Virus record (IMG/VR): IMGVR_UViG_3300020469_000008
Location: 138,055 to 202,054 of that record
Length of the DNA: 64,000 nt
Strand: one strand, 5' to 3'
Source of the DNA: a virus
Taxonomy: Duplodnaviria > Caudoviricetes
The position numbers and the translations under genes were made by a program. Below are positions 43,958 through 64,000 of this stretch, piece by piece. Position 1 is the first letter of the stretch, and every line of letters starts with the position of its first letter. Under the pieces are notes generated by a model. It was not told the origin of the DNA. It did not search any database and was given only the letters and a program-made list of their open reading frames with translations.

Positions 43958-43960
43958 TCA

Positions 43961-45025: not shown

Positions 45026-45053
45026 TGTAATAATAATAAAAATAGTTTATACT
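45025..45053 (+). promoter_or_regulatory. phage promoter GTGTAA-N17-TATACT
   Basis: Repeated motif; overlaps the upstream TAG. Confidence 0.7.
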
Positions 45054-45089
45054 AAATTTACTAACAACAAACAAAACAAAGGAGAAATT

Positions 45090-45398: not shown

Positions 45399-45413
45399 AA
45401 CAAAGGAGAGATT

Positions 45414-45605
45414 ATGCGTTCATTAATGTTGGCAGCAACTTTATCATTAGTTGCTTGTGGAGACAAAGAAGAGGAAGATACTTCAGTTGAAGAAGTCGAA
45501 GAAGTTGAAGAGGTTGAAGAGACCGAAGAAACAGAAGAGACTGGTGAGGCCGAGGAAGAAGAATCTTCTGAGGAATCAGAAGAAGAAACTGGGGGTGAAG
45601 AATGA
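45414..45605 (+). CDS. small Glu-rich lipoprotein
   Basis: Lipobox LVAC followed by EEV/EET repeats. Confidence 0.65.
   Translation: MRSLMLAATLSLVACGDKEEEDTSVEEVEEVEEVEETEETEETGEAEEEESSEESEEETGGEE
45486..45539 (+). repeat. imperfect 9-bp tandem repeat (about 6 units)
   Basis: GTTGAAGAA/GTCGAAGAA/GTTGAAGAG/ACCGAAGAA encoding V/T-E-E. Confidence 0.7.
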
Positions 45606-45844
45606 TTGCATTGATGTTTGCATTTATTCTCGGTTGTGATGACGGAGACACAACAGAAACAACAACGTCAACAACAGGTACAACTGAAACTACTACAGAA
45701 AGTACAAACAGTACAGTTGATAGTAAGACAACACCTGTCAGTAACACAAGTAGTGAAACATCTACTACAAATGTTACTAAAGATGAGACGTCTACTGATG
45801 AATCATCGAAAACACAAGACAATACAGAAACTAATTCTGATTGA
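45602..45844 (+). CDS. small Thr/Ser-rich lipoprotein
   Basis: Lipobox ILGC; low-complexity T/S/E tail. Confidence 0.6.
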   Translation: MIALMFAFILGCDDGDTTETTTSTTGTTETTTESTNSTVDSKTTPVSNTSSETSTTNVTKDETSTDESSKTQDNTETNSD

Positions 45845-45919
45845 ACTTAACAAATGATGTTAGCTGTGGCCCCTAGCGTATAAAAGGGGCACTCTTTAAA
45901 CTTAAACACTAGAGAAACA

Positions 45920-46231
45920 ATGCTATTTCACCAACTACTAGCAATTATCATTTACAGCGGGTGGCATTACGGGAAAGTTTATCATGAAAACCAAAGAGGT
46001 AACATGGACTTTCAACAAGCACTAAGCAAGGTTATATTAATCCTGCTTATGTCTTATCTGTTATATGCAAAAACTATTTTGTTTTTTGCAATAACATTTA
46101 GTAAGTTTTTGTATGATATACTCTTGATTTTTATTTCACCCCCACCCTCAATTCTACTTCCTAAAAACAAAGAAAACTTATTTGACGCAATGATTGGCTT
46201 AGCCTGTTGTGTTCTTTACATCATAGGATGA
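45920..46231 (+). CDS. multi-TM membrane protein
   Basis: Several hydrophobic helices. Confidence 0.55.
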   Translation: MLFHQLLAIIIYSGWHYGKVYHENQRGNMDFQQALSKVILILLMSYLLYAKTILFFAITFSKFLYDILLIFISPPPSILLPKNKENLFDAMIGLACCVLYIIG

Positions 46232-46235
46232 AAGT

Positions 46236-46541
46236 ATGGCACAAGTAATAGACTTAACTTCTGAAATTAGCAAAAGACGATTGCAAAAAATTAAATCAGA
46301 GTTAGAGATTGAACTACAAAGATTAGACTTTGATATTGAAAAAGAGCTAAATAGATATGTAATTTTTGATACTTCTAATTATTATGAACTATTACATGAA
46401 GGAAAAAAGGAGGAAGTGTCTTATGAAAAGGCAATGAAATTATTATTAACAGCCTTTGATATGTTGGTAAAATTAAATAAAGAAGAGGCAGCAATCGAGG
46501 TTGAAAACACAATAACACGTTTAGAAAACAATAGTTACTAG
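46236..46541 (+). CDS. hypothetical protein
   Basis: 101-aa helical ORF. Confidence 0.55.
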   Translation: MAQVIDLTSEISKRRLQKIKSELEIELQRLDFDIEKELNRYVIFDTSNYYELLHEGKKEEVSYEKAMKLLLTAFDMLVKLNKEEAAIEVENTITRLENNSY

Positions 46542-46550
46542 GAGTAAGAT

Positions 46551-46781
46551 ATGGCAATTAAGCTTAAAGATAGAGTTAAACTTCAGAATAGAAATGACAA
46601 AAAAGACGAAGGGTTAGTTGTAAAAGTTTACAAGAATCGAAATGGTTCAATTAAGACAGCAGGTGTACTATGGGACAGTGATTGGCCGAGAGCAGTACAG
46701 CATAATCCTAGGCTTCAACCAGGGAGGGTTTTCTACTATAAACCTGAAGATCTTAAGATTGTTGGAAGCTGGAGAATATAA
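46551..46781 (+). CDS. small SH3/KOW-like protein
   Basis: KLKDRVKL...EGLVVKV...VLW; SD AGGAG. Confidence 0.55.
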   Translation: MAIKLKDRVKLQNRNDKKDEGLVVKVYKNRNGSIKTAGVLWDSDWPRAVQHNPRLQPGRVFYYKPEDLKIVGSWRI

Positions 46782-47044
46782 TGAGTAACGACGGTGGTGG
46801 TGGTAGATATGATGGAGACGATAAGATAATTGACATAACTGACTTTGTCAATAAAAAGACAGACGAAGAAATAGAGATTGAAGAATTTACTAACCACTTT
46901 GTCAATATGTTTAATCGTGGAATCATAGAAAGACAACGTGAAGAAGCAAGAAAACAATTTATAAACTTTATGATAAATTTCTTACTTTGCTCACAGATAG
47001 CCATTACCGTCGCAATCTGTTTTATCATAGCAAAAATCTACTAG
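46781..47044 (+). CDS. small membrane protein
   Basis: TAATG coupling; C-terminal TM. Confidence 0.55.
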   Translation: MSNDGGGGRYDGDDKIIDITDFVNKKTDEEIEIEEFTNHFVNMFNRGIIERQREEARKQFINFMINFLLCSQIAITVAICFIIAKIY

Positions 47045-47092
47045 ATTTATGCACTGCCGGGAGATAGTTATAGTCGTTAAGGGAGAACTAAG

Positions 47093-47731
47093 ATGACTGT
47101 ACTATCTCGCGCTTTTATACGTAGAATGATCATTCAAGAAATGAGAAAGCCTCCGCTCTCAAGTGGTTTAACTTTTGATGATGAAGACTCAACAATCAAT
47201 ATTGATGATGATACTGAGATCGATGATATCCCAAGTTTCATGGGTGATGATGAAGATATCGAAGATTTAGCAGCTTTCGACGCGCTTGCCAATGCCCAAG
47301 GTATAGATCAAACTTTATATCGGGATAATCCTGATTATAGAGCGAGTATTGATGATTTTGGATTCGATGATACTGATGATGATGATGACTTTGAGTTTGA
47401 GTTTGAGTCAGAAACAGAGGAAGATTCAGAGTCAGAAACAGAATATAACCCAGGACGTCAAGTGATGGATATGTCTGGCGATGAAATTAGAAGACATGTA
47501 ATGAGTCAAGCTGATAAATTGTCACCGGACATGCGTGCAAGAGACATGAGGACACGAGCACAAATGCAATACGATGATTTAGTAAAGCAGGGTAGAGAAA
47601 GCGAAATGGATGATCCAGAATTTATGGACACTGCAGAATTACCTCCGTACAATATGCGTAGGAAAAAATTAAAGGAAAGCATCGCTAGAAACATCAGACA
47701 ATCAATAAGAAAGAGATTACTCTTATTATGA
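47093..47731 (+). CDS. acidic protein with leader-like helices at both ends
   Basis: MTVLSRAFIRRMIIQEM ... KLKESIARNIRQSIRKRL. Confidence 0.6.
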   Translation: MTVLSRAFIRRMIIQEMRKPPLSSGLTFDDEDSTINIDDDTEIDDIPSFMGDDEDIEDLAAFDALANAQGIDQTLYRDNPDYRASIDDFGFDDTDDDDDFEFEFESETEEDSESETEYNPGRQVMDMSGDEIRRHVMSQADKLSPDMRARDMRTRAQMQYDDLVKQGRESEMDDPEFMDTAELPPYNMRRKKLKESIARNIRQSIRKRLLLL

Positions 47732-47985
47732 CAGTAATACCACGTGGTGATTACAATCCTGAAATAGATATCGTTGAAGGTGACCTAGTTACTGTTAATT
47801 GGGATGAGTCAAACGATTTAGGGATTGTTTTAAAAGTTGCGTTGGAAGTAAGAAATAACGATCATCTGTGTCCTTCTGAAGAATTTTTAGTTGCTGAAGT
47901 CTACATATGTGGACATGTTTTTGTATTTGATGAAGATGAAATAACGATCATTGAAAAGTGTAATATTCATAAAACTTGTATATAA
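47728..47985 (+). CDS. small SH3/KOW-like protein
   Basis: EGDLVTV...LGIVLKV. Confidence 0.5.
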   Translation: MTVIPRGDYNPEIDIVEGDLVTVNWDESNDLGIVLKVALEVRNNDHLCPSEEFLVAEVYICGHVFVFDEDEITIIEKCNIHKTCI

Positions 47986-47986
47986 T
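47958..47986 (+). promoter_or_regulatory. phage promoter GTGTAA-N17-TATAAT
   Basis: Repeated motif inside the end of the upstream ORF. Confidence 0.6.
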
Positions 47987-53084: not shown

Positions 53085-53274
53085 TCTAATTTGGTTTGCC
53101 TGCTCAGTTGATACGCGTACAAACAAAGTAATGGATTGGGGGTTAGGTATACTTCTAGAATATTCTACAATGCAGAAAACTGGGACAGTTCTTTACAATG
53201 GTAATCTCCGGCGCGTCAGAGGTGAGTATCTTAAAACAGTAGGAAAAAACCCGCTTGAAAACTGGACAGCGTAA
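53071..53274 (+). CDS. MKxGDLV-family small protein
   Basis: MKKGDLIWF...LGILLE. Confidence 0.6.
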   Translation: MKKGDLIWFACSVDTRTNKVMDWGLGILLEYSTMQKTGTVLYNGNLRRVRGEYLKTVGKNPLENWTA

Positions 53275-53299
53275 TGTATCTCGCGCCCGCGTATGCGCG
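53272..53299 (+). repeat. GC-rich 28-bp direct repeat, copy 1
   Basis: TAATGTATCTCGCGCCCGCGTATGCGCG; 26/28 identical to 55431-55458. Confidence 0.85.
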
Positions 53300-53318: not shown

Positions 53319-53347
53319 GTGTAACATGACTTTCTGTATTATATACT
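53319..53347 (+). promoter_or_regulatory. phage promoter GTGTAA-N17-TATACT
   Basis: Repeated motif. Confidence 0.75.
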
Positions 53348-53371
53348 ATAAACAACCAACCAGGAGATACA

Positions 53372-53842
53372 ATGGAATACGCAGGCAAAAGAAGAAGAGC
53401 TATCTTAGACAAGGTAAAGGCACAATTGCGCGAAGAATCTGAAGCCCAACTTTTGGATGGGATGGACTTCAACAACTGGAATGAGGCATTCGACATGTTG
53501 AACACACAGTTCTGGAATGGTAGTTTACCAAAGATTCCAGTGACTACCGAAGCAACAAAGAAAGCACAGTACGGATGGTATGGATATAAAGGATACATAA
53601 AGTTAAGCGCTAACAAAGGACTGTCACCTCTCCAAATGTTAGGAGTTTTACTGCATGAGATGTGTCATCACTATGTTGAGGTAACATACAAACACGGGTA
53701 TTCAGCTGCAGCAGGTGGCAAGCGAGTCATCGGTCACGGAAAGGAATGGAAAGCTGAAATGAGACGCGTGGGATACCTAGGCAAGATTACTCGATATACT
53801 GGAAAAGAAAGATTCACAGGAGTGTCACGATGGCAACAGTAA
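53372..53842 (+). CDS. SprT-like zinc metalloprotease domain protein
   Basis: FDMLNTQFWNGSLP, VLLHEMCH, HGKEWKAEM. Confidence 0.8.
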   Translation: MEYAGKRRRAILDKVKAQLREESEAQLLDGMDFNNWNEAFDMLNTQFWNGSLPKIPVTTEATKKAQYGWYGYKGYIKLSANKGLSPLQMLGVLLHEMCHHYVEVTYKHGYSAAAGGKRVIGHGKEWKAEMRRVGYLGKITRYTGKERFTGVSRWQQ

Positions 53843-54048
53843 AGAAAGTCGAAGAAAAGCTAACACAACACAGTCGGACAGGTGCCAACACATATATGAT
53901 CCCTTCAAAGAATATGGATAATTGGTACAAGGATGAGTTGTTGTTTGTAAGGAAAGTAGAGGCAGGTTGCGCAGTCGTCTTTCGTTCAATGGATGGTAAA
54001 CTTTATTCTTTGAATGATAAGATGTTACTAAACTTTAAGTTGTTGTAA
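53830..54048 (+). CDS. hypothetical protein
   Basis: 72-aa ORF. Confidence 0.5.
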   Translation: MATVKKVEEKLTQHSRTGANTYMIPSKNMDNWYKDELLFVRKVEAGCAVVFRSMDGKLYSLNDKMLLNFKLL

Positions 54049-54049
54049 A

Positions 54050-54078
54050 GTGCAACATTGAAAAGTATACTATATAAT
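54050..54078 (+). promoter_or_regulatory. phage promoter GTGCAA-N17-TATAAT
   Basis: Repeated motif. Confidence 0.7.
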
Positions 54079-54107
54079 AACACAAACCAGACAAAAAAGG
54101 AGACATT

Positions 54108-54446
54108 ATGTCATTGTCAACATCAACAACACCATTCGTAAAACACTTCATAGTAGAGCCTGGTAACATGACTCGCTACGAGTTGCTCTATATCGTCTAT
54201 CCCGACAGTCAGTACGATGTACCTCACTGCGGCGTTACTTGGTTGCAGAGAGGAACCGGTGGTGAGACTTTCGTCTGGGTAAAAGGAAGTTCCATCTACA
54301 GTTCATATGTACTCGAAAAGTCAAACATAAATCGTCCGGACTTGGTCGCCATTCTCTGTTCAATCAAAAAACGATATCCTGACTCTATATCTGAGTTAGT
54401 TGGCTTTGAAGAATATGATGAAAACGGACTTTGGAGGGGTGCATAA
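54108..54446 (+). CDS. hypothetical protein
   Basis: SD AAGGAG after promoter. Confidence 0.6.
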   Translation: MSLSTSTTPFVKHFIVEPGNMTRYELLYIVYPDSQYDVPHCGVTWLQRGTGGETFVWVKGSSIYSSYVLEKSNINRPDLVAILCSIKKRYPDSISELVGFEEYDENGLWRGA

Positions 54447-55108
54447 TGCCAGTATCAAAAACAGTGACACTATATTCTTTTGAAGAACTAAACACGACAA
54501 TACAAGATAACATTATTAGTGCATATGTGCAGGACTTACCCGGGTGGTGGTCAGATGATGTTGAAGAACGAATTAGGAACGAGGCAAAGTCATTAGGGAT
54601 AAATAACTTTGACTTCTCTTGGAGCGGCTTCTGGTCACAAGGTGACGGGTTATCTTTCACCGGCCAAATCAACTTTAAGAACTGGTTGTTCATTCTCACA
54701 GAACGGTTATCTTCTAAACAGTTCTCAGATCTTTGTGGTAAAACACCACAAGAGATAGTCCAACTCAAAGAAGATAATAGAATAGAATGGGGTGGCTGTG
54801 TCATCGAACGATTCAATTACCAGTACTGTCACGAAAACACAGTGCAGGTATCAGAACCTGACTCTAAATTGGGATGGGATGAAAGAAGAGGTTACCCTAG
54901 TGACAATGAGATAATGAGCATCTTCGGTGAGAATGTACAAAGACTATTGCGAGAATGGAAGAATGAATTGTGCAACCGCTGGTATTCAGAATTGCAGAAC
55001 GCATACGAGTCTGTTACTGAGAGAGACAATATCGTCAGGGACATCAACTCAAAGGAGTTACTGTTTACTTCGAGTGGAACAGTTGTTGATGAGGGAGAAA
55101 TGGCTTAA
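54446..55108 (+). CDS. conserved phage/MGE hypothetical protein (SGFWSQGDG family)
   Basis: T.TLYSFEEL...FSWSGFWSQGDGLSF.G; TAATG coupling; function unverified. Confidence 0.55.
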   Translation: MPVSKTVTLYSFEELNTTIQDNIISAYVQDLPGWWSDDVEERIRNEAKSLGINNFDFSWSGFWSQGDGLSFTGQINFKNWLFILTERLSSKQFSDLCGKTPQEIVQLKEDNRIEWGGCVIERFNYQYCHENTVQVSEPDSKLGWDERRGYPSDNEIMSIFGENVQRLLREWKNELCNRWYSELQNAYESVTERDNIVRDINSKELLFTSSGTVVDEGEMA

Positions 55109-55168
55109 TAATCTTTTGTAAAAACGTAAGGTAACGAGATATATTATTACACACCAGGAGCAATACTA

Positions 55169-55339
55169 ATGGAAACCTACATCGTGTCAATACCGATCAC
55201 AACTGATATGGATTCATCACAACTTTTAGATATAATCAATTCTCAGATCTCTCAAATTTTAAGCGATGAAATTGAATCATATGGGTATGAAGTTGAAGTA
55301 GATGAAAACGAGGTTGCTGTAGAAAACGTGAATGAATAG
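55169..55339 (+). CDS. small acidic hypothetical protein (56 aa, not in track)
   Basis: SD AGGAG; METYIVSIPIT... Confidence 0.55.
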   Translation: METYIVSIPITTDMDSSQLLDIINSQISQILSDEIESYGYEVEVDENEVAVENVNE

Positions 55340-55344
55340 ATTTT

Positions 55345-55424
55345 GTCAACCGGTCACCACTCCGGCCCCTCTCACTATGTCCTTGTTGGGCGCGCGAAGT
55401 TTTCGACCGGTTGGCTTTTCTATT
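55345..55424 (+). terminator. large-loop hairpin + U-tract (terminator or structured RNA)
   Basis: GTCAACCGGTC (55345-55355) / GACCGGTTGGC (55405-55415) followed by TTTTCTATTT. Confidence 0.45.
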
Positions 55425-55430
55425 TGTACA

Positions 55431-55460
55431 TAATGTATCTTGCGCCCGCGTATACGCGGG
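55431..55460 (+). repeat. GC-rich direct repeat, copy 2, containing the palindrome CCCGCGTATACGCGGG
   Basis: 16-bp palindrome at 55445-55460. Confidence 0.85.
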
Positions 55461-55466
55461 GAGTAA

Positions 55467-55558
55467 TTGTAAAGAATTGGTGTAGAGATTAACGCACGAG
55501 GTGTAAACCGGGAAGTGGAGCGGGTAATCTCGAGGGTGGGTAACGGGATCCTTTACAA
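55467..55558 (+). ncRNA. candidate multibranch structured RNA / G-rich element
   Basis: TTGTAAAG/CTTTACAA outer stem, GAGATTA/TAATCTC inner stem, five GGG tracts. Confidence 0.4.
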
Positions 55559-55566
55559 GATATAGA

Positions 55567-55595
55567 GTGTAACAGCACATAAGCTGTTGTATACT
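55567..55595 (+). promoter_or_regulatory. phage promoter GTGTAA-N17-TATACT
   Basis: Repeated motif. Confidence 0.75.
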
Positions 55596-55629
55596 AAAAA
55601 CAACCATAAACCCAATAAAGGGAGATAAT

Positions 55630-55965
55630 ATGCGACTCACCATTTGCAAACATTGCAGCGACGCATTTGACAAAAACTCAAGACGTAAAAGAACAGTAGG
55701 GGGTTATATCGATGAGTGTCCTAGCTGTGTTGAAGAACTTGGGACGGAAACAAACGAGACAATCCGCGGGGTTATTAGTGGTGACGGTAAAATGGCGTGC
55801 ATTCAGATTCTAAAGTTTGATAGCAAGTCAGAAGCAGATCAGTACTGCAGCGCTTGGAATGCCAACAGCGGATGGAACAATCGACGTAGCGGTGGTCTTG
55901 ATGACGTGAAGTTCCAGAAGATCGGAGAAAACGCGGGTAATACAAACCACAAAGGAAAACTGTAA
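55630..55965 (+). CDS. hypothetical protein with two CxxC pairs
   Basis: CKHC ... CPSC; SD GGGAG. Confidence 0.6.
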   Translation: MRLTICKHCSDAFDKNSRRKRTVGGYIDECPSCVEELGTETNETIRGVISGDGKMACIQILKFDSKSEADQYCSAWNANSGWNNRRSGGLDDVKFQKIGENAGNTNHKGKL

Positions 55966-56015
55966 AAGTGCAACAGCACAAAACCAATAGTATACTAAAA
56001 CCACACAACAACCAA
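55965..56015 (+). repeat. 51-bp exact direct repeat (promoter + leader), also at 57652-57702
   Basis: AAAGTGCAACAGCACAAAACCAATAGTATACTAAAACCACACAACAACCAA. Confidence 0.85.
55968..55996 (+). promoter_or_regulatory. phage promoter GTGCAA-N17-TATACT
   Basis: Repeated motif. Confidence 0.75.
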
Positions 56016-56025
56016 TGGAGGTCAT

Positions 56026-56247
56026 ATGGCTACAAATATCTACAAAGTAATAACTTATGAGAGCGCGGTTCAAATGTTTATCGATCATGAACTGCCAGGT
56101 ATTCAAAATCAATATGAAGAAGACGGTGTTCCTGACAGACCGGCAAGGAACGAAGGGTGGCATAACTTTGTCAACTGGCTATGGGAAAACAAAGAGATTA
56201 GTGATTGGCAATCGGAAAACTGGTCAGTACCTGAAATATGCGGGTGA
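56026..56247 (+). CDS. hypothetical protein
   Basis: SD GGAGG. Confidence 0.6.
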   Translation: MATNIYKVITYESAVQMFIDHELPGIQNQYEEDGVPDRPARNEGWHNFVNWLWENKEISDWQSENWSVPEICG

Positions 56248-56257
56248 GGAGAAAAAC

Positions 56258-56539
56258 ATGACAACATTACCAAAGTATTCAAATGAACCAAACTTTGTCG
56301 GGTATCCACTGTGGTATATCATCGACGATCATAAAGCGCAATGTAATGAATGTGCTACAGTTTCAAAGTCAGAGGGCTTCACAACTTCAAAGCAGGTGAA
56401 CTGGGAAGATACAAACCTGTGGTGTGATGAGTGCAGTGAGAAGATAGAATCAGCATACGGAGAAGATCCAGATGAGAAGGAGCCTGATGATGACACTACT
56501 GAGGACTTCGATGACCCGTACATAAAAGCAAAAGAATAA
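56258..56539 (+). CDS. small Zn-finger-like phage protein
   Basis: GYPLWY...CNEC...VNWED..L.CDEC...IESAYG; ATG 56258 after GAGGAG. Confidence 0.6.
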   Translation: MTTLPKYSNEPNFVGYPLWYIIDDHKAQCNECATVSKSEGFTTSKQVNWEDTNLWCDECSEKIESAYGEDPDEKEPDDDTTEDFDDPYIKAKE

Positions 56540-56544
56540 ACTCC

Positions 56545-56671
56545 GTGGTTGGTGTTTAGCAATCTGTATACAAGGGCGCAAGGACGGCATAGGTCGACGA
56601 GGCAGCCGTATACAGATTGCGGAGAGAGAGCTGGTTACTCTCGGGAAAGGGTGGGCACATTCACCGACCAC
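56545..56671 (+). ncRNA. candidate three-way-junction structured RNA
   Basis: Outer stem 56545-54/56662-71; 13-bp stem 56559-71/56608-20; GAGAG/CTCTC hairpin 56626-42. Confidence 0.55.
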
Positions 56672-56675
56672 AAAA

Positions 56676-56704
56676 ATGTAACAACTACAATAGTGTAGTA
56701 TAAT
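56676..56704 (+). promoter_or_regulatory. phage promoter variant ATGTAA-N17-TATAAT
   Basis: Repeated motif variant. Confidence 0.65.
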
Positions 56705-56736
56705 AAAACCACAACCCCAACTACAAGGAAAATAAT

Positions 56737-56946
56737 ATGAATATGTACGCCAACATTATCAACCGGTTCTTTGATTACAAAGACCAAACCTACCAAATCA
56801 CTTCCGAAGTAGTTCAAGCTAACAGCCTCGCGGATGACTTTCACTCCTATCGTGTGTGTACAAACGTTAAGACAGGGAAAGTTGTCAAGTTCTTCTATGA
56901 AGAGTTCTGGAATGTGACAGCCCGAGGTTACACTGCAGAAGTGTAA
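56737..56946 (+). CDS. hypothetical protein
   Basis: SD AAGGA; stop codon is the TAA of the next GTGTAA box. Confidence 0.6.
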   Translation: MNMYANIINRFFDYKDQTYQITSEVVQANSLADDFHSYRVCTNVKTGKVVKFFYEEFWNVTARGYTAEV

Positions 56947-56969
56947 CTCTGGTAAATGTAGTGTATACT
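56941..56969 (+). promoter_or_regulatory. phage promoter GTGTAA-N17-TATACT
   Basis: Repeated motif. Confidence 0.75.
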
Positions 56970-57003
56970 AAAGCCGTAAACCTCCCAACTAAAGGAAACA
57001 ATA

Positions 57004-57378
57004 ATGATCTTAACTAATAACAATGAAAACATTGGAAGGTCTGATGAATACAAACAAGTGTGTGTCTGGCCCGGTATTATTATCGCAGATAATCAGATCG
57101 AAAACTTTGAAAACTACTTCAGTAAAGAAGGTTTTAGAGTTCAGTTCTTAGAATCAATACAGACAAAACCTGATCGAGACGAAAGTGGAGATGACGTAAG
57201 CGAATCCGGCGGCAGAATTGATGCAATCTTTGCAGTTCATAACGATGATGTAATGAAGTTCTCTATCCCACGCTTAGGTATGGGTATCAGGTGGATTGAG
57301 GACGTTTTAGATAATGAAGCGCGTAAAACAGAACACAGTATCTATCCAGATCGTGTCAAAGAATATAGAACTTGGTAG
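57004..57378 (+). CDS. hypothetical protein
   Basis: SD AAAGGA. Confidence 0.65.
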   Translation: MILTNNNENIGRSDEYKQVCVWPGIIIADNQIENFENYFSKEGFRVQFLESIQTKPDRDESGDDVSESGGRIDAIFAVHNDDVMKFSIPRLGMGIRWIEDVLDNEARKTEHSIYPDRVKEYRTW

Positions 57379-57387
57379 GAGAAAACT

Positions 57388-57648
57388 ATGTACAATCGAA
57401 TAGACTTGAGCAACTCAGCAATTGATGACAAACCGCTTTACTTGGCAATTTGGCCTGATAGTGATGAAGTACCAGAAGTCTGGACTTACAAGAAAGCAGA
57501 TGAAGCTTTCGGCGAGATACTAGAGGTGATGGAAATGATCAGGCATTTGGATTACTACGAAGAACTATACCACGAGGAAAGCAACTTCGTCTTAATGCGA
57601 ATCCCATCTTGGCTTGATGTGCCAAAGATTAAGTACCAAGTGCAGTGA
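57388..57648 (+). CDS. hypothetical protein
   Basis: SD AGGAG. Confidence 0.6.
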   Translation: MYNRIDLSNSAIDDKPLYLAIWPDSDEVPEVWTYKKADEAFGEILEVMEMIRHLDYYEELYHEESNFVLMRIPSWLDVPKIKYQVQ

Positions 57649-57654
57649 GGTAAA

Positions 57655-57683
57655 GTGCAACAGCACAAAACCAATAGTATACT
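57655..57683 (+). promoter_or_regulatory. phage promoter GTGCAA-N17-TATACT
   Basis: Repeated motif, identical to the copy at 55968. Confidence 0.75.
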
Positions 57684-57721
57684 AAAACCACACAACAACC
57701 AACCAACTCTAAGGAGACTAA

Positions 57722-58474
57722 ATGAAACTAAATGTTAAAATTGAAGAGATACCGTTCGGAACAAACATTCAAGATGTTGAAGTGCCAGATGTACTCAAAA
57801 CCAAAGTCCCATCAGGCCTAGGCTACTTTGATTATGCTCTTGGTGGTAAAGGGTTCACACCATCCCTTTGCGGCTTGTTTACTGGAACTCCAGGCGCCGG
57901 CAAAACCACTATGATGTTGACTCTGGCTAATGCCCTCCAAGGTCACGGAGCTCAGGTGGTATTCAATACTGCAGAGGAGTCACTATATCAAGTCAAAATG
58001 TCAGCCGACCGTTTGAGGCTGAGACACTCATTCATGTTAGGTGGCGAGTCTAATGTGCCAACACTACTCGCTGGATGCGATAAGGTTCGAAAGGCAAATC
58101 CTGATAAGCCATTCTTCCTGATTGTGGACTCACTCCAATGTATGGATGATGGGCACTTTAACTCAGGCCGTATTACAACTGCGACTGCCGAAAGAGCACT
58201 AGCATTGTTGACTTCATATGCAAAGGAAAATGCTTGTAATGTGCTAGTCATCGGACAAGTCAATAAAGACGGCAAAATGAGCGGCTCAAATAAGTTGAAG
58301 CATATGGTGGATATGCACATTCACTTAAGTGTTGAAGACAAGGACGAGGACCTCATGGGTTGCCGAATCTTAAACACACAAAAGAACCGTTTTGGTGGGG
58401 CAGGTCATGTAGTATTCCTCCGACTCAAAAAGAACGGCTTCAGTGAAGTTGCCCGCATTGGTGCTGATGACTGA
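57722..58474 (+). CDS. radA: RadA/Sms-like RecA-fold ATPase, copy 2
   Basis: Paralog of 41918-42673; GTPGAGKTT, IVDSLQ, KNRFG. Confidence 0.8.
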   Translation: MKLNVKIEEIPFGTNIQDVEVPDVLKTKVPSGLGYFDYALGGKGFTPSLCGLFTGTPGAGKTTMMLTLANALQGHGAQVVFNTAEESLYQVKMSADRLRLRHSFMLGGESNVPTLLAGCDKVRKANPDKPFFLIVDSLQCMDDGHFNSGRITTATAERALALLTSYAKENACNVLVIGQVNKDGKMSGSNKLKHMVDMHIHLSVEDKDEDLMGCRILNTQKNRFGGAGHVVFLRLKKNGFSEVARIGADD

Positions 58475-58488
58475 TTGATGGGGAGACT

Positions 58489-58518
58489 CACACCCTGGAA
58501 ACGGGGTGTGCAGTTTTT
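58489..58518 (+). terminator. intrinsic terminator
   Basis: CACACCC-tggaaacg-GGGTGTG then CAGTTTTT. Confidence 0.6.
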
Positions 58519-58527
58519 ACACTAAAA

Positions 58528-58555
58528 GTGTAACTCTGCAAGCATAGTGTATACT
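58528..58555 (+). promoter_or_regulatory. phage promoter GTGTAA-N16-TATACT
   Basis: Repeated motif with a 16-bp spacer. Confidence 0.65.
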
Positions 58556-58585
58556 AATAACACAACCAATAACGGAGGAGCTAAA

Positions 58586-59194
58586 ATGGCTTTTACTAAA
58601 GACACAATCTCAAATCTACTAAACCAACACCCGTTGCTTATTGACAAAGCTATTGAGATGATTGGTGATAATCAAACAGCAGATGAGCTCGGCTCTCGAC
58701 ACACCAAGTATGAAAACGGTATCGGGTTCACTGCTTCCTATGGGACCATTGGTACTGTCCTCTATCAGTTTGTGACAGGCCGTGACTGCCGGCGACCAGG
58801 TCATCCAGTTCGATGGAAGCCAAAGTCACTTATCACTGACGGTGATGTTTTGGATAGAACTCGTGATATGCGTCGATTCAAATACCGTAATCCGCACTAT
58901 GCGCAATCAACTCCTCGCGAAATTGCTAAAATGATCGCAGTGCTTCACTGGCGGCAGTTAGGTGGTTTAATGGATCGCAGCAATTGGGTACAACCACCAG
59001 CAACTGCGACAACACAGCAGCCACAAACAATGGTGGTGCGATACACTCGCATTGTAAAAGAGACACAACGTGCAATCTTACTTGAGAAGGTTGATACTGA
59101 AGGTATTGCTTGGGAAAGGTGGATACCCAAGTCAATGATAGTCACTGACGGACGCCTTATTCAAGGCCAGTTTACAATTAAGCGACCAGCTTAA
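58586..59194 (+). CDS. hypothetical phage protein
   Basis: ATG 58586 after GGAGGAG; QTADE...T...NGIGF motif. Confidence 0.6.
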   Translation: MAFTKDTISNLLNQHPLLIDKAIEMIGDNQTADELGSRHTKYENGIGFTASYGTIGTVLYQFVTGRDCRRPGHPVRWKPKSLITDGDVLDRTRDMRRFKYRNPHYAQSTPREIAKMIAVLHWRQLGGLMDRSNWVQPPATATTQQPQTMVVRYTRIVKETQRAILLEKVDTEGIAWERWIPKSMIVTDGRLIQGQFTIKRPA

Positions 59195-59357
59195 GAGTTT
59201 ACAAATGGTATTGTACACAGTATTCATACTGGCTCTATTCTTAGGGTCAGTTATTGTCCCTCTGCAGATCGCTGCAGTAGAGTTCGAATCTGAGAGGGAG
59301 AGATGTGACCCATATACAAAGGTATGGGAAGACACATCAGTTATGCAGAGGTAGATT

Positions 59358-59612
59358 ATGAGTGAGTGGTTTTTCCTACAACAAATGAAAAAAAGACAAA
59401 GTGATGGCGAAGATAAAGAAGATAAGCTAAGTGCAATCCGAATTCAAATCAGAGATACACTTCGCGAAGAGAGCCTTCTTAAGAACAAGCTGGATACGAT
59501 ACCCGCAAAGGATAGATTTGGTCACCCATTGAGGATTGAGTGGATCGCAGCCCGATCAAAGTATTGGGATTTGATTGCTAAAATGAGAGATATAGAACGC
59601 GGTAAAGTGTAA
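59358..59612 (+). CDS. hypothetical protein
   Basis: SD GAGG; ends GKV* at the promoter box. Confidence 0.55.
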   Translation: MSEWFFLQQMKKRQSDGEDKEDKLSAIRIQIRDTLREESLLKNKLDTIPAKDRFGHPLRIEWIAARSKYWDLIAKMRDIERGKV

Positions 59613-59635
59613 CCGGTGAATAACTTTGGTATACT
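59607..59635 (+). promoter_or_regulatory. phage promoter GTGTAA-N17-TATACT
   Basis: Repeated motif. Confidence 0.75.
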
Positions 59636-59659
59636 ATAAACACAACCAAAGGAGATAAT

Positions 59660-59794
59660 ATGTCTAAAAAGAAGAAGAATACAAAACGAAACTGGCTTGC
59701 GGTGCACGCTTTTCAAAGAAGCGGGGCTGGACACCACGGAGATAAGAAGAAGGCAAAAAGCAAGAAGGCTTGCAGAGGAAAGGTGAGAGTATGA
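59660..59794 (+). CDS. small basic protein (44 aa, not in track)
   Basis: SD AAAGGAG; RNWLAVHAFQRSGAGHHGDKKK...ACRGK. Confidence 0.6.
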   Translation: MSKKKKNTKRNWLAVHAFQRSGAGHHGDKKKAKSKKACRGKVRV

Positions 59795-59979
59795 CAGTGA
59801 AAATAGGCCAGGTATATACCCGCGAAGGAAGAAGATATCAGATTATGCAGATAAAATCATCACTTGTTATTGCCCACTCTTATGGTGAAGATCACGGTGT
59901 TGACACTATTATTTATGTTAATAAAGAAAGCGGTAAAGTGATAGCGACAAAAGCTCGATATGGAAGGAAACCAAAGTGA
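59791..59979 (+). CDS. hypothetical protein
   Basis: ATGA overlap; MTVKIGQVY. Confidence 0.55.
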   Translation: MTVKIGQVYTREGRRYQIMQIKSSLVIAHSYGEDHGVDTIIYVNKESGKVIATKARYGRKPK

Positions 59980-60058
59980 TAGAGCTTGTTTTAGCTTCAA
60001 CCGTATGGGCTTTGATGTTCTTGCTAGCACTTTTTGTCTACAAAAATAATAAGTAAAA

Positions 60059-60087
60059 GTGTAACTCTGACAAGCATAGTGTATACT
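60059..60087 (+). promoter_or_regulatory. phage promoter GTGTAA-N17-TATACT
   Basis: Repeated motif. Confidence 0.75.
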
Positions 60088-60125
60088 AATAACACAACCA
60101 ATAACAATCAACCAAAGGAAATAAT

Positions 60126-60599
60126 ATGACAAAATGTAAAGTAACAGTTCATGATAGAGTTTACTTAGATGTACCAGGCAAGAGAATGGTGATCGAGCTG
60201 CTCGATGGATATGATGCGGATGGAGACTATATAGATGCTTGGCGACTCATCGACCTCAACACAGGTGAAGAGTTTTACCGAGATGTGAACCTGCATGATG
60301 TGATTCACCAGGCTTCGCTAATGACTTGCGAGGCACAGGACGATCACTATGATGAGTACATTGTAGGGCGAACTCCAGAATCAGACTATAGAGTTTTTCG
60401 AGCCTTGCCTATGGCTGTTAGATTAGAATGGATCACATCACACGCCGGTGACTTGGAACATGACTTCAAGCTAGACGGTGACACGCGTGACCCGATTGCA
60501 GTCGCAACACAAGAGCTCAATGACATATACAATGAAAAGCCGTGTTTCTACTTAGATCGCCAGGCTGGCAAATGGGAGCTTGATTGCGACCGTTGCTAA
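60126..60599 (+). CDS. hypothetical protein
   Basis: SD AAAGGA. Confidence 0.65.
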   Translation: MTKCKVTVHDRVYLDVPGKRMVIELLDGYDADGDYIDAWRLIDLNTGEEFYRDVNLHDVIHQASLMTCEAQDDHYDEYIVGRTPESDYRVFRALPMAVRLEWITSHAGDLEHDFKLDGDTRDPIAVATQELNDIYNEKPCFYLDRQAGKWELDCDRC

Positions 60600-60601
60600 A
60601 A

Positions 60602-60630
60602 GTGCAACCCTGGCAAGCATAGTATATACT
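60602..60630 (+). promoter_or_regulatory. phage promoter GTGCAA-N17-TATACT
   Basis: Repeated motif. Confidence 0.75.
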
Positions 60631-60657
60631 AAATAAGAACTAACCAAAGGAGATAAA

Positions 60658-60900
60658 ATGGCTAATCAAACAACTGTACCACATTTAGTACTTGAAAGGT
60701 TTCCGCACGTTGCCCGGGCGATCGAAATACCTGAAGACATAAAAGGCAATCTAGAACTTGAACACGAGTTCCTCTTCCCATTGATTATGCGCGATTATCG
60801 ATCTGAGTGGTCTATCATCTGCGATGAAGTAGACAAAGCTATCGAAGATGGTTCTGCTTACTTCGACAGTGCAAGTGGTATCATTACACAGGTACATTAG
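60658..60900 (+). CDS. hypothetical protein
   Basis: SD AAAGGAG. Confidence 0.6.
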   Translation: MANQTTVPHLVLERFPHVARAIEIPEDIKGNLELEHEFLFPLIMRDYRSEWSIICDEVDKAIEDGSAYFDSASGIITQVH

Positions 60901-61020
60901 TTATGAATGATATGAAATATATAGTTTTTGGAGCAATACTCGTAATCTATCTAGACTGGAGCCGACTCTTCGGAGACATACAAAGAATAATAACATTAGT
61001 AACAACAGAGGTACAAACAC

Positions 61021-61275
61021 ATGAACAAACGAATGACTAATGAGCAACTAACACATATTGATGAACTGGTTGAGAACTACAAACAAATGATTGAAGTTTA
61101 TCCTCGATCTAATATCTTAAGAGATGCGCGAATTCACCACACATCAATGGCAGCTGGAGGAGACGGAGGTCCAATTGGATACGACGATGAATCGACCATT
61201 CGTGGGTACTACTATTCGAATTATCCTGATGTGTTCTTCCAGCGAATCTGTGAAAGAATGCGATGGGAGTGGTAG
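61021..61275 (+). CDS. hypothetical protein
   Basis: SD GAGG. Confidence 0.6.
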   Translation: MNKRMTNEQLTHIDELVENYKQMIEVYPRSNILRDARIHHTSMAAGGDGGPIGYDDESTIRGYYYSNYPDVFFQRICERMRWEW

Positions 61276-61373
61276 GTGCACATCATCGAACTAGGACACA
61301 CAATCGGTTACGCGATACTGATCTTCGGTTTTGCGACCATAATCTTCCTGACGATTGCAGAAGACGACTAAAA

Positions 61374-61402
61374 GTGTAACCCTGGCAAGCATAGTGTATA
61401 CT
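61374..61402 (+). promoter_or_regulatory. phage promoter GTGTAA-N17-TATACT
   Basis: Repeated motif. Confidence 0.75.
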
Positions 61403-61427
61403 ATATACACAACCAATAGGAGCTAAT

Positions 61428-61730
61428 ATGAGTACAGGGTTCAAAGTAAAGACACACATCGGAGTTATGGATAGCGAACCAGAGATCGCATTGCGGTTTT
61501 GGGGAGGATCCAAACATAAACAAACAGTTCGATTTGCATTTCCGAAGCAGGTAATGTTTCATCTAAAAGATGTCGTAGTCTGGGGTGATGATGGTTCTAG
61601 AACAACACTTGGTGCACTATTTGACGAGTGTCATACATGTGACTTCCTAAATGCTGAGAGAGCGGATGACTTCTTGGCTTGGGGATCTAAACACCCACAA
61701 CCCGCAGATACGGAAAGGTTCTTAGTTTAA
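61428..61730 (+). CDS. hypothetical protein
   Basis: SD AGGAG. Confidence 0.6.
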   Translation: MSTGFKVKTHIGVMDSEPEIALRFWGGSKHKQTVRFAFPKQVMFHLKDVVVWGDDGSRTTLGALFDECHTCDFLNAERADDFLAWGSKHPQPADTERFLV

Positions 61731-61736
61731 CCAAAA

Positions 61737-61765
61737 GTGTAACCAATACAAACCTATAGTATACT
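61737..61765 (+). promoter_or_regulatory. phage promoter GTGTAA-N17-TATACT
   Basis: Repeated motif. Confidence 0.75.
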
Positions 61766-61793
61766 AATAAAGAACCCCCAACCAAAGGAAAAT

Positions 61794-61961
61794 ATGTTAG
61801 TCAAAGTAAAAGAAGAACTTAAAAATAGTGAAGCTCGTGGACAGTGGGCTGGCCGAACAGGATTAGTTGTAAAGGTACTCAAGTCTTGTAAGGCCGTCCG
61901 GTTTTGTTCCGGTGAAACAGTCAAGTTTTATCACCAACATCTTGAAACCATCAACCAATAG
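61794..61961 (+). CDS. small KOW/SH3-like protein (55 aa, not in track)
   Basis: LVKVK...GRTGLVVKV...HLETI; SD AAAGGA. Confidence 0.55.
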   Translation: MLVKVKEELKNSEARGQWAGRTGLVVKVLKSCKAVRFCSGETVKFYHQHLETINQ

Positions 61962-61970
61962 GAAAATAAT

Positions 61971-62306
61971 ATGACAGTTTTTGATTACGCACCCACAACA
62001 GATTGGAGAGACAAGAACATGACTTCTAATCTCGATCACATACTAGATGAAGAGGCACTGACAATCGTCAAAAGCATTGACGTCGATGAACTAGAACGCG
62101 CATTTGGCGATCGCCCGCAAGACTACCATCGTGGTGATTACGAACACGATGTGAAGGGATACACACTACCTTACTGGTACTTCAAATCAATCAATGATGA
62201 AGTAGTAGGTATCGGTTTCCGCTACGGTATCCCAAGAGTCGTTGGAAAGAATGTCACACCTGAAAGATTGGCCCGGTTTGTAAAGCTGGTGGCACAAAAA
62301 GTGTAA
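61971..62306 (+). CDS. hypothetical protein
   Basis: Ends QKV* at the promoter box. Confidence 0.6.
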   Translation: MTVFDYAPTTDWRDKNMTSNLDHILDEEALTIVKSIDVDELERAFGDRPQDYHRGDYEHDVKGYTLPYWYFKSINDEVVGIGFRYGIPRVVGKNVTPERLARFVKLVAQKV

Positions 62307-62329
62307 CTGCTCCCAAAGTGTAGTATGAT
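62301..62329 (+). promoter_or_regulatory. phage promoter GTGTAA-N17-TATGAT
   Basis: Repeated motif. Confidence 0.7.
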
Positions 62330-62356
62330 AATAAAGAACCAACCAAAGGAGATAAT

Positions 62357-62650
62357 ATGACAGAGAGAAAGTTTTTGACCACCGCGAAGACAGAAGCAGA
62401 TGTAAGAAAGATTGCCGACTGGTACGGCTGGCAGACTGAGGAGGATAACGAAGGGCAGCTGATTATCTACACCGATATCCCCGAAGGTGCACCCCAAGTG
62501 GCACAGGAAGCTGCTGCCATCTACAACTGGGATTATGATAGTGATAACTTAGGTGCGATCCTGCTGTACACTGGGGTTTACTCAGATGAACAGATCCGCC
62601 GAGATGAAAAGAACAGTCTTTACCCAGATAAGTGGGATCCCTGTAACTAA
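62357..62650 (+). CDS. hypothetical protein with internal duplication (DNEGQLIIYT / DNLGAILLYT)
   Basis: SD AAAGGAG. Confidence 0.6.
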   Translation: MTERKFLTTAKTEADVRKIADWYGWQTEEDNEGQLIIYTDIPEGAPQVAQEAAAIYNWDYDSDNLGAILLYTGVYSDEQIRRDEKNSLYPDKWDPCN

Positions 62651-62658
62651 GAACATAT

Positions 62659-62763
62659 GCGGTCTGCATAACCCAGTTTGCCGACTGGGTGGGTGCACAC
62701 TCTCAGAATAGAGACGGCAATCTCTGAGTTGAGAACGCTGGGGTTCGATTCCTCAGGTCCGCA
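62659..62763 (+). ncRNA. tRNA-like structured RNA with complementary (kissing) hairpin loops
   Basis: Acceptor-like stem GCGGTCT/GGTCCGC + A; T-arm TGGGG-TTCGATT-CCTCA; hairpin loops TTGCCG (62678-83) and CGGCAA (62715-20). Confidence 0.65.
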
Positions 62764-62781
62764 GCCTCTTTGCCACCAAAA

Positions 62782-62810
62782 GTGCAACATAACCAAAAGC
62801 ACTATATACT
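62782..62810 (+). promoter_or_regulatory. phage promoter GTGCAA-N17-TATACT
   Basis: Repeated motif. Confidence 0.75.
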
Positions 62811-62835
62811 AATAACACCAACCAAAGGAGACAAT

Positions 62836-63027
62836 ATGAATCATGAAACAGGATACAAAGTCAAAGTATCTTTGAGAAACGGTACACATATTATTGGTGT
62901 AGTTGATTGCTACAAAAGAGTCACTGAGGACTTTCACACACGATTGGACTTATGTGTTGAGTACCAAGACTCAAAAGGAGACACTATGTATATGTGGGTT
63001 CCTGATTACCGCACAACAAAAGTGTAA
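62836..63027 (+). CDS. hypothetical protein
   Basis: ATG 62836 after AAAGGAG; ends TKV* at the promoter box. Confidence 0.55.
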   Translation: MNHETGYKVKVSLRNGTHIIGVVDCYKRVTEDFHTRLDLCVEYQDSKGDTMYMWVPDYRTTKV

Positions 63028-63050
63028 CTAGACAAACTACCAAGTATACT
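63022..63050 (+). promoter_or_regulatory. phage promoter GTGTAA-N17-TATACT
   Basis: Repeated motif. Confidence 0.75.
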
Positions 63051-63086
63051 ATATACACAACCAATAATACTAACCAAGGAAAAACA

Positions 63087-63332
63087 ATGCAAAACGTACA
63101 AATCGAAATGAAAAACATCAAATGGCTCCAAGCAGTTGCAATCCCTGACTGCGACTTGGAAACACCACCAACAGAACTTCTTTTTGAAATAACCTTTTTT
63201 GATGGTGACTGCGAAACTGCTGAAGCTATTGATGAAGCTATAGCCGATCATCTTGAAAGCCGGTTTGGTTTTCGTCCTGTGAAATGGGACTTATGGATGT
63301 TTGATGACACATGTGAAAACGTGTGTGCATAG
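63087..63332 (+). CDS. hypothetical protein
   Basis: SD AAGGA. Confidence 0.6.
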   Translation: MQNVQIEMKNIKWLQAVAIPDCDLETPPTELLFEITFFDGDCETAEAIDEAIADHLESRFGFRPVKWDLWMFDDTCENVCA

Positions 63333-63341
63333 GAGGAATAT

Positions 63342-63470
63342 ATGAATACAATCATGACAGTTATTACAGGTATCGGTGCGATTGGAATGCTTTTAGTTAT
63401 GTGTTCCATTCCAGCTTTGATAGCCGGCGGTATCGTTGCTAATCACGGCCAGAAGAATGAAGACAAATAG
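63342..63470 (+). CDS. small membrane protein (42 aa, not in track)
   Basis: SD AGGAGG; single TM. Confidence 0.5.
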   Translation: MNTIMTVITGIGAIGMLLVMCSIPALIAGGIVANHGQKNEDK

Positions 63471-63498
63471 TGCAACATAACCAAATGCGCTATATACT
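63470..63498 (+). promoter_or_regulatory. phage promoter GTGCAA-N17-TATACT
   Basis: Repeated motif; overlaps the upstream TAG. Confidence 0.75.
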
Positions 63499-63529
63499 AT
63501 ATACATAACCAATCAACCAAGGAAACATT

Positions 63530-63775
63530 ATGACGCTAGCACAACAATACGACAACAACATAGAATCGATTGCCGATCGCTTCCGTCAATCAGATGCAGT
63601 AGATCAAATCCTCTACGACATTAAGCTACTGCGAAAAAGCATAAACTTAGCAATCAATCAAGAAGTTGTAGAGGACCTGATTGAAGAAGTCGAGGAATAT
63701 GTCCACTACGATGAATCGCTGGAATATATCTTAAGACAAATACCCGTTGAGGTCAAAGCTTTACTAGCTGGATAG
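63530..63775 (+). CDS. hypothetical protein
   Basis: SD AAGGA. Confidence 0.6.
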   Translation: MTLAQQYDNNIESIADRFRQSDAVDQILYDIKLLRKSINLAINQEVVEDLIEEVEEYVHYDESLEYILRQIPVEVKALLAG

Positions 63776-63780
63776 TAAAA

Positions 63781-63809
63781 GTGCAACATAACCAAACGCG
63801 CTATATACT
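63781..63809 (+). promoter_or_regulatory. phage promoter GTGCAA-N17-TATACT
   Basis: Repeated motif. Confidence 0.75.
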
Positions 63810-63840
63810 ATATACACAACCAATAACCAAGGAAAATAAT

Positions 63841-64000
63841 ATGTTACCATCATCTCTATATTCACAAAGTGACTGGGCCGAACTATTCACACTGTGTGCC
63901 AGGTATTCAGACTCAGCTCAAGCGGCCGATTATCATGCAATAACTGAATGGCTTACAGAATGGTCAAAGACACATGACTGTCCGCCACCAGATGAAACTC
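63841..64000 (+). CDS. hypothetical protein, 3' truncated
   Basis: ATG after AAGGA; frame open to the window end. Confidence 0.45.
   Translation, partial: MLPSSLYSQSDWAELFTLCARYSDSAQAADYHAITEWLTEWSKTHDCPPPDET

Follow-up and report, generated by a model that had tools for sequence, protein, structure and literature searches.

The window analysed here, a 64,000-nucleotide (nt) stretch of viral DNA corresponding to positions 138,055 to 202,054 of IMG/VR record IMGVR_UViG_3300020469_000008, contains an array of small genes in which one conserved promoter-like module recurs at the head of unit after unit. The array is the hyperplastic small-gene region of an uncultured marine jumbo myophage and probably corresponds to its early region. 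We regard it as likely that the array consists of about 30 such units, that their promoter modules act as portable homology, and that cassettes are exchanged by crossovers at the modules. Crossovers of this kind appear as hybrid promoters in relatives, and in the window genome they are suggested by families of similar promoters and by a private variant of the -10 box. Each unit would comprise one conserved module followed by a strong Shine-Dalgarno site and then one to four ORFan genes.

Units headed by a promoter-like module and their extent

The window forms the final 64 kb of a 202,054-bp contig (G000), which is linear and approximately 70% complete. The motif GTGYAA-N17-TATAMT had 20 exact matches in the window, all on the plus strand, compared with 0.05 expected from shuffled sequences, and the whole contig held 27 exact copies on the plus strand and none on the minus strand. 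Between positions 53319 and 63809, 15 exact copies and three variants (at 56676, 58528, and 62301) account for the 18 copies that the original prediction had reported there, and its description of the repeats as promoter-like modules heading small cassettes of ORFan genes was likewise supported. The conserved module proved to be longer than had been written, running from an A tract to the start codon: AAAA, GTGYAAC, N16, TATA(C/A)T, A, an A/C-rich leader, AAGGAG, and ATG, with 7 to 8 nt separating AAGGAG from ATG. The predicted leaders were 18 to 32 nt long and contained 50 to 60% A and 14 to 32% C, with G nearly limited to the ribosome site, and their folding energies were near 0.

The array is cut by the end of the window. 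A Tara Oceans scaffold, L030, that differed from the window by only 5 mismatches over 13.9 kb (99.96% identity) extended past the window end and carried about 12 further module copies, the last at window-equivalent position 70298. Together with L038, this scaffold placed the end of the array at approximately 70.6 kb in window coordinates, about 6.5 kb beyond the window. In full, the array comprises about 30 modules and about 50 small genes within about 17 kb, or approximately one module per 580 bp, and it is followed by larger genes, including those for radical SAM, fatty-acid hydroxylase, and peptidase proteins.

Compared with the canonical TTGACA-17-TATAAT promoter, the spacing of 17 and the -10 hexamer (TATAAT or TATACT) of the module fit, whereas the -35 hexamer matches at three of six positions; a generic promoter scan did not pick the module sites and found no enrichment of canonical promoters (23 found and 29 expected). 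Given that the -35 part is noncanonical and that the promoter reading is drawn from sequence, the repeat might instead be a different cis element, such as an RNA-processing site or the binding site of a replication or packaging protein. This alternative is very improbable, because the two hexamers lie exactly 17 bp apart, with TATAAT or TATACT as the second, because the module always stands 45 to 65 nt 5' of a Shine-Dalgarno site and start codon, and because its strand tracks gene orientation. Past the end of the array, the same motif occurs on the minus strand before minus-strand genes (L038:12885-12979 and 17833-17844, directly 5' of a gene for a 137-amino-acid [aa] protein and a peptidase M10-like gene) and therefore behaves as a promoter should, and a position matrix applied to 21 related loci gave 75 hits on the gene strand versus 2 on the opposite strand. 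Furthermore, the two boxes are conserved among relatives and the spacers are variable, and an Rfam search of positions 55000 to 64000 at permissive thresholds gave no credible match. The module probably combines a strong sigma-70-family promoter with a translation-initiation region, so that any gene placed behind it would be expressed.

Terminators were almost absent. Terminator-like hairpins found by a generic scan were at background level (9 found and 8.9 expected), folding was better than in shuffled sequences at only 2 of the 18 junctions, namely 53319 (z = -2.5) and 58489 (z = -4.65), and the stem-plus-T-run form of a terminator was seen at just one junction, at 58489-58510 on the plus strand. 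Transcription therefore probably continues from one unit into those that follow. No two of the 33 cassette proteins were paralogues, and most had no family; the exceptions were an SprT-like protein (gene at 53372-53842) and a KaiC/RecA-like ATPase (gene at 57722-58474).

A search with this ATPase yielded more than 2000 metagenomic proteins and 21 IMG/VR loci at 44 to 84% identity, and 15 of these 21 loci contained the motif, always on the gene strand. The core nTGYAA-N17-TATAAT was kept throughout a large marine phage clade, including loci in which the ATPase was 55 to 84% identical and the G+C content was 32 to 49%. The flanks varied by lineage, with an A tract and a CA leader in the window lineage and a T tract and a hairpin after the -10 box in L018 and L019. 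The box was mostly TTGTAA in L014 and G003, the latter also having a TAAATT -10 box, and its first base was G in the window phage and A or G in L001 and L063. The closest relative, L001, had 25 modules in 20 kb and also showed overlaps between stop codons and the box. L001 and L002 are parts of one 75,823-bp contig (IMGVR_UViG_3300006802_000087) that carries two diverged ATPase copies about 19 kb apart; these are 84% and 74% identical to the ATPase of the window, and the surrounding G+C contents are 45% and 36%, respectively. This contig represents either two arrays in one phage or a chimera of two related phages.

Crossovers and cassette order

The loci L001 and L063, which are 84% identical at the DNA level, differed by three indels (516, approximately 360, and 1666 nt). 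At two of these, the single L001 promoter corresponded to the left L063 promoter through the 5' gene, the -35 box, and the early spacer and to the right L063 promoter from the leader to the next gene; these L001 promoters are hybrids of the kind that a crossover within the module leaves behind. At the third indel, an extra promoter-plus-gene unit in L063 abutted a promoter copy and followed a leftover GTGTAAG that ends the 5' gene. The crossover points in the hybrids lay at different places within the module, and one gene of the largest L063 insertion was located elsewhere in L001. Because both arrangements were found in independent assemblies, that of L063 in L064 and that of L001 in eight listed contigs from different samples at 99.8 to 100% identity, an assembly error is unlikely. 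In addition, eight cassettes shared by the window and L001 were in a different order, and several cassette genes were the second gene of a unit in one of these phages and had their own promoter in the other.

These crossovers bear out a parallel drawn in the original prediction, the shuffling of promoter-containing repeats in T4-type phages, in that they fit the mechanism of the promoter-early stem-loop (PeSL) cassettes described for RB49/phi1, PST/T4, and nt-1/KVP40 (Arbiol et al. 2010, PMC2839356; Comeau et al. 2014, PMC4122927). Modules of 30 to 60 nt would offer portable homology to general recombination, and crossovers between modules would delete, insert, and move cassettes.

Within the window genome, neighbouring modules were more alike in their nonfunctional positions (spacer plus leader) than distant ones (Mantel r = -0.38 with distance, P = 0.0006), and 12 of the 136 spacer pairs were at least 70% identical, versus a null rate of 0.0002. 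The modules at 58528, 60059, 60602, and 61374 formed one spacer family and those at 62782, 63470, and 63781 another; the copy at 61374 was 90% identical over 50 nt to that at 60054, and one pair of modules, 1.7 kb apart, was 100% identical over 51 nt (55965-56015 and 57652-57702). The TATACT form of the -10 box was present in 25 of the 30 array copies, compared with 3 of 53 in the arrays of relatives (P = 3e-13) and 0 of 7 elsewhere in G000. Spreading of TATACT through the array by copying between modules is the favoured explanation, because the arrays of relatives work with TATAAT. The only lineage-specific positions were the C of the -10 box and the first base of the -35 box, and the identity of spacer plus leader showed no clear excess within genomes over that between genomes (0.45 versus 0.44 for L001).

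Several points weigh against this account of the array. Contigs with identical cassette proteins, assembled from many samples with various assemblers, were compared (16, 15, and 19 of the matches), and no rearrangement was found in these approximately 50 contigs of near-identical strains, all of which were collinear at at least 99.4% identity. The proposed recombination of cassettes at the promoter thus stands for the relatives, with crossovers inside modules in L001 and L063, but not for such close strains; likewise, cassette order is fixed among strains at least 99.4% identical and not fixed at the greater distance of L001. Shuffling is therefore slow, occurring on an evolutionary time scale and not by ongoing excision. 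The lone deviant contig, L042, differed in its first 256 nt, with a breakpoint at the shared ribosome-site sequence near the contig end, and this deviant end may be an assembly artefact. Almost every junction has a promoter, so that breakpoints fall near one fairly often by chance; since such proximity is frequent, the case for crossovers inside the module is made from the anatomy of the hybrid promoters only. The shared TATACT could mark a functional subclass instead of homogenization. Finally, promoter activity, start sites, and early timing are put forward on the logic of the sequence.

The original prediction had called the array integron-like, a label that was not sustained. Under that interpretation, cassettes would be excised as circles and reinserted at the promoter repeat by a site-specific recombinase. 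Repeats do bound the cassettes, and mini-circles of PeSL cassettes are known in RB49/phi1 (PMC2839356). Logan contigs from four runs, when mapped to the array, also showed many joints between promoter copies, both skips and back-joints, and some of them joined a later copy to an earlier one (60115>57651, 61369>60056, and 61431>60623). The sides of the joints were mostly 20 to 46 nt long (one was 60 nt) and came from mixed populations, and the joints were not counted as evidence of deletions or circles; depth differences were not used. For the back-joints, the sides were 32 to 60 nt long and the contigs were short, and joints of this type often arise from relatives or repeats. Furthermore, a search for tyrosine recombinases (PF00589, E ≤ 1) found no match in the 202-kb contig, which is approximately 70% complete, although the control genomes all scored; attC-like inverted repeats were absent from 16 of the 18 junctions; each cassette has its own promoter, with none shared; the crossover points in L001 and L063 vary within the module, as in homologous exchange; and near-identical strains are collinear. 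Integron-like excision and reinsertion is accordingly given hardly any credence, and homologous crossover at the modules remains the preferred explanation.

The pair L008 and L009 was considered as a further case of promoter crossover and rejected, as its only indel lies between copies of a sequence coding for a shared N-terminal leader and not at a promoter. The two loci are 99.99% identical, and the indel (L008:15486-16195) is a 655-nt deletion between two direct repeats of about 55 nt that encode MKITRRQLRRLIKEE, the leader shared by adjacent genes. Short repeats of another type are therefore a further route to gene loss in this clade.

Unit layout and stop codons in the -35 box

All units of the array within the window lie on the plus strand. 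The first module, GTGTAA-N17-TATACT at 53319-53347, has a GC-rich hairpin on its 5' side and heads the SprT-like gene and the gene at 53830-54048. The second, GTGCAA-N17-TATAAT at 54050-54078, stands 2 nt after the TAA of its 5' gene and heads the genes at 54108-54446 and 54446-55108. A weaker variant, TTGTAA-N18-TATATT at 55116-55145, heads 55169-55339; a GTGTAA module with a small hairpin in its spacer (55567-55595) heads 55630-55965; and the module at 55968-55996 heads 56026-56247 and 56258-56539. The variant ATGTAAC-N16-TATAAT at 56676-56704 precedes the gene at 56737-56946, and the module at 56941-56969 precedes those at 57004-57378 and 57388-57648. The ATPase gene follows the module at 57655-57683, and a promoter occupies the same place in many relatives. 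After the sole terminator-like hairpin, a module with a 16-nt spacer (58528-58555) heads three genes, at 58586-59194, 59205-59354, and 59358-59612.

Farther downstream, the module at 59607-59635 heads 59660-59794 and 59791-59979, that at 60059-60087 heads 60126-60599, and that at 60602-60630 heads 60658-60900, 60903-61040, and 61021-61275. The next two modules, at 61374-61402 and 61737-61765, head 61428-61730 and the pair 61794-61961 and 61971-62306, respectively. A variant with the -10 box TATGAT (62301-62329) heads 62357-62650, and it is followed by modules at 62782-62810 (heading 62836-63027), 63022-63050 (heading 63087-63332 and 63342-63470), and 63470-63498 (heading 63530-63775). The last module of the window, at 63781-63809, heads a gene that starts at 63841, is cut by the window end, and is complete in L030, where it ends at window-equivalent position 64113.

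In the modules at 56941, 59607, 62301, and 63022, the TAA of GTGTAA is also the stop codon of a frame (with ends at 56946, 59612, 62306, and 63027, respectively); the last three of these frames end in KV* and the first ends in EV*. In three others, ending at 37727, 45025, and 63470, the G of a TAG stop coincides with the first base of the box. All of these positions, which the original prediction had listed, were confirmed from the open frames. The -35 box thus does double as a stop codon, but this needs no special explanation, because its frequency is what the reading frame alone predicts. When genes called on L030 were combined with promoter positions, the stop of the 5' gene lay between -8 and +5 of the box in approximately 19 of 29 modules, and GTGTAA or ATGTAA served as the stop in 5 of 15 modules, with about one-third expected from frame alone. 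The GTGCAA modules, which cannot supply a stop, abutted their 5' genes equally tightly (offsets of -1 to -7), and the base at box position 4, T or C, appears to be independent of the 5' reading frame in this array. A stop codon of the 5' gene within the AT-rich part of the module has a precedent in PeSLs (PMC2839356, Fig. 2 legend). Taken together, the frame expectation, the equally tight GTGCAA modules, and the PeSL precedent make the overlap, although genuine, look like an incidental result of close packing.

The stop in the box might instead be a selected device that couples the end of 5' translation to promoter occupancy or seals incoming frames. The overlap recurs in the array (5 of approximately 30 modules, plus the TAG overlaps), occurs in the relatives L001 and L004, and is kept in L063 as a fossil GTGTAAG where the 5' gene still ends on it. 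In addition to the frequency, the GTGCAA offsets, and the PeSL stops given above, however, the module provides stops in just two of the three frames, and selection of this sort is improbable. We instead attribute the overlap to compaction and to recombination at the modules: where genes are packed against the next module, their stops would fall in its 5' part, as a TAA in the A tract, the TAA of GTGTAA, or a TAG sharing the first G.

Several noncoding elements lie between the units on the plus strand. A 28-nt GC-rich repeat that forms hairpins is present at 53272-53299 and 55431-55458 (93% identical); both copies lie in the two longest noncoding gaps of the array, each 5' of a promoter module. 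An intergenic element at 56536-56680 has a very stable predicted fold, closed by an outer stem of 13 bp (-54 kcal/mol, z = -5.5); metagenome contigs show that other strains have various short hairpins in place of its inner part (approximately 56557-56629). The 131-nt noncoding gap at 62648-62781 folds into a four-way cloverleaf-like structure (-45.8 kcal/mol, z = -2.1) with a canonical-looking T-arm; it was called by neither ARAGORN nor Rfam and may be a degenerate or unusual tRNA-like element.

Outside the array, five dispersed plus-strand copies of the module, at 28975, 37727, 41855, 45025, and 47958 (spanning 28975-47986), mostly have the -10 box TATAAT and precede replication-type and other genes. 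The window also encodes, on the plus strand, a transfer-messenger RNA (tmRNA) gene at 13771-14107 (Rfam RF00023, 108.7 bits), with the tag peptide ANNNNFYDVALAA according to ARAGORN, and three tRNA genes at 42916-43740 (Arg-TCT, Gly-GCC, and Met-CAT). Both ends of G000 lie within genes, and nearly all of its genes are on the plus strand. Genes for a major head protein, a tail sheath, a DNA polymerase, an SbcC-like protein, a helicase, and a ligase identify the contig as that of a large myovirus. A megablast search of the array against deposited phage genomes found no near relative, the best match of the helicase was only 36% identical, and the sequencing runs containing the window sequence were marine and viral metagenomes from 13 studies.

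Candidate sigma factors and comparison with known systems

Immediately 5' of the window, G000 encodes a split RpoD-like sigma factor (135212-136275, equivalent to L029:1372-2435). A 248-aa open reading frame (ORF) covers regions 1.2, 2, and 3 and only the start of region 4, and it is followed by a 97-aa ORF with a helix-turn-helix-like segment. The pair was present in four of five related records (G001-G004), including both that are at least 96% complete, and the sigma gene itself was headed by the box in G000, G001, and G003. Its promoter in G000 (135140) lies within a GC-rich inverted repeat, a setting similar to that of the array modules preceded by the 28-nt hairpin repeats.

Reading of the box by the host primary sigma factor, as for the TTGYVH early promoters of KVP40 and nt-1, is given about an even chance. 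It may be wrong, because the box matches TTGACA at three of six positions and because a phage sigma factor exists. That the phage's own split sigma factor reads the box is a serious possibility, though one we would put short of even. A fuller version, in which GTGYAA is a private promoter code read by this sigma factor, split in domain 4, and not by the host primary sigma factor, with the 97-aa protein supplying the -35-reading helix-turn-helix and the cassettes expressed only in phages that share the sigma factor, is advanced tentatively. The presence of both ORFs in G000 and of the pair in four of the five related records is consistent with it, as are the persistence of a box that differs from TTGACA at three positions across relatives of 32 to 49% G+C and the box before the sigma gene in three records, which fits positive feedback. 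Profile searches of the contig for MotA (MotCF, PF09158) and AsiA (PF09010) also found neither. However, a sigma gene behind such a promoter requires another holoenzyme to fire first, and the box is within one base of the TTGYVH -35 box of the host-read early promoters of nt-1 and KVP40 (PMC4122927). The -35 boxes of PeSLs themselves differ by lineage: TTGACA, TTTACW in T4/PST, and TTGYVH in nt-1/KVP40 (PMC4122927). Moreover, G003 and L014, with mostly TTGTAA, are nearer to the canonical box and yet carry a similar small helix-turn-helix protein, and covariation between the recognition helix of the small protein and the box among relatives gave no clean signal. A literature search for GTGTAA phage promoters returned nothing relevant.

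A second candidate promoter class could equally be the target of the phage sigma factor. A ATAATTAG-like motif was enriched before other genes, and the 7-mer ATAATTA, often as GATAATTAG, occurred in 14 promoter-less 5' regions outside the array in G000, compared with 2 expected; the ATAATTA class is a candidate second, perhaps late, promoter class. The T4 late promoter TATAAATA was not enriched in the contig (5 on the plus strand and 12 on the minus strand). The T4 middle promoter also differs from the module, having a MotA box, TGCTT, near -30 where the array has GTGYAA at -35 spacing.

The array appears to work like PeSL cassettes, sharing most of their defining features and lacking the stem-loop. 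As in PeSLs, the repeat is composite, with an A/T-rich tract holding the 5' stop, a -35 box, a 17-bp spacer, a -10 box, a Shine-Dalgarno site, and a start codon; a hyperplastic region of small ORFan genes holds most of the modules; the -35 consensus is lineage specific; and indels between related phages, here L001 and L063, have crossovers inside modules. Unlike in PeSLs, the stem-loop or terminator half is missing from 16 of the 18 modules (L018 and L019 have a hairpin after the -10 box), the -35 box is GTGYAA, the leader is conserved, unstructured, and A/C rich, the modules are more densely packed (approximately one per 580 bp over 17 kb), the 5' stop frequently falls within the -35 hexamer, and the phage encodes its own split sigma factor. 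As a counterpart to the mini-circles of PeSLs, there are here only the Logan back-joints described above. The early promoter consensus of nt-1 and KVP40, TTGYVH-N17-TAWWAT (PMC4122927), shares the 17-bp spacing and an A/T-rich -10 box; TGYAA fits positions 2 to 6 of TTGYVH, and the TTGTAA of the relatives G003 and L014 fits all of it, whereas the first base is G in the window phage and the -10 box of the array is TATACT.

Compared with integrons, the array shares the succession of small, unrelated mobile cassettes bounded by a repeat but has no integrase and no attC hairpins, its cassettes carry their own promoters, and exchange looks homologous. Dense clusters of small early genes in which every gene has its own strong promoter and ribosome-binding site are also typical of the host-takeover module of Bacillus phage SPO1 and of the pre-early and early regions of T5-like phages, where the promoters are canonical host sigma-A or sigma-70 sites, unlike the array box. 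We know of no promoter-mediated cassette shuffling described for SPO1 or T5-like regions, and, to our knowledge, the only documented examples of PeSL-type shuffling come from a small number of cultured T4-type phages that infect enterobacteria and vibrios.

A bolder idea, on balance unlikely, is that the module, read by the two-piece sigma factor, serves the whole marine jumbo-phage clade as expression signal and recombination "currency" alike. If so, cassettes would be plug-and-play only among phages that share the private promoter code, and the array-wide TATACT would represent concerted evolution of approximately 25 promoter copies. The findings place the same logic as that of PeSLs in an abundant clade of uncultured marine jumbo phages, whose marker ATPase has more than 2000 metagenomic relatives, and they indicate a module that has lost the terminator half, differs in its -35 box, and stands so close to the 5' genes that the box also serves as a stop. 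They provide a sequence-level handle on the turnover of the large ORFan repertoire of the clade and a simple motif for finding the early regions of these phages in metagenomes. The array and the split sigma factor together provide a system in which a promoter specificity, perhaps private to the phage, can be tested.

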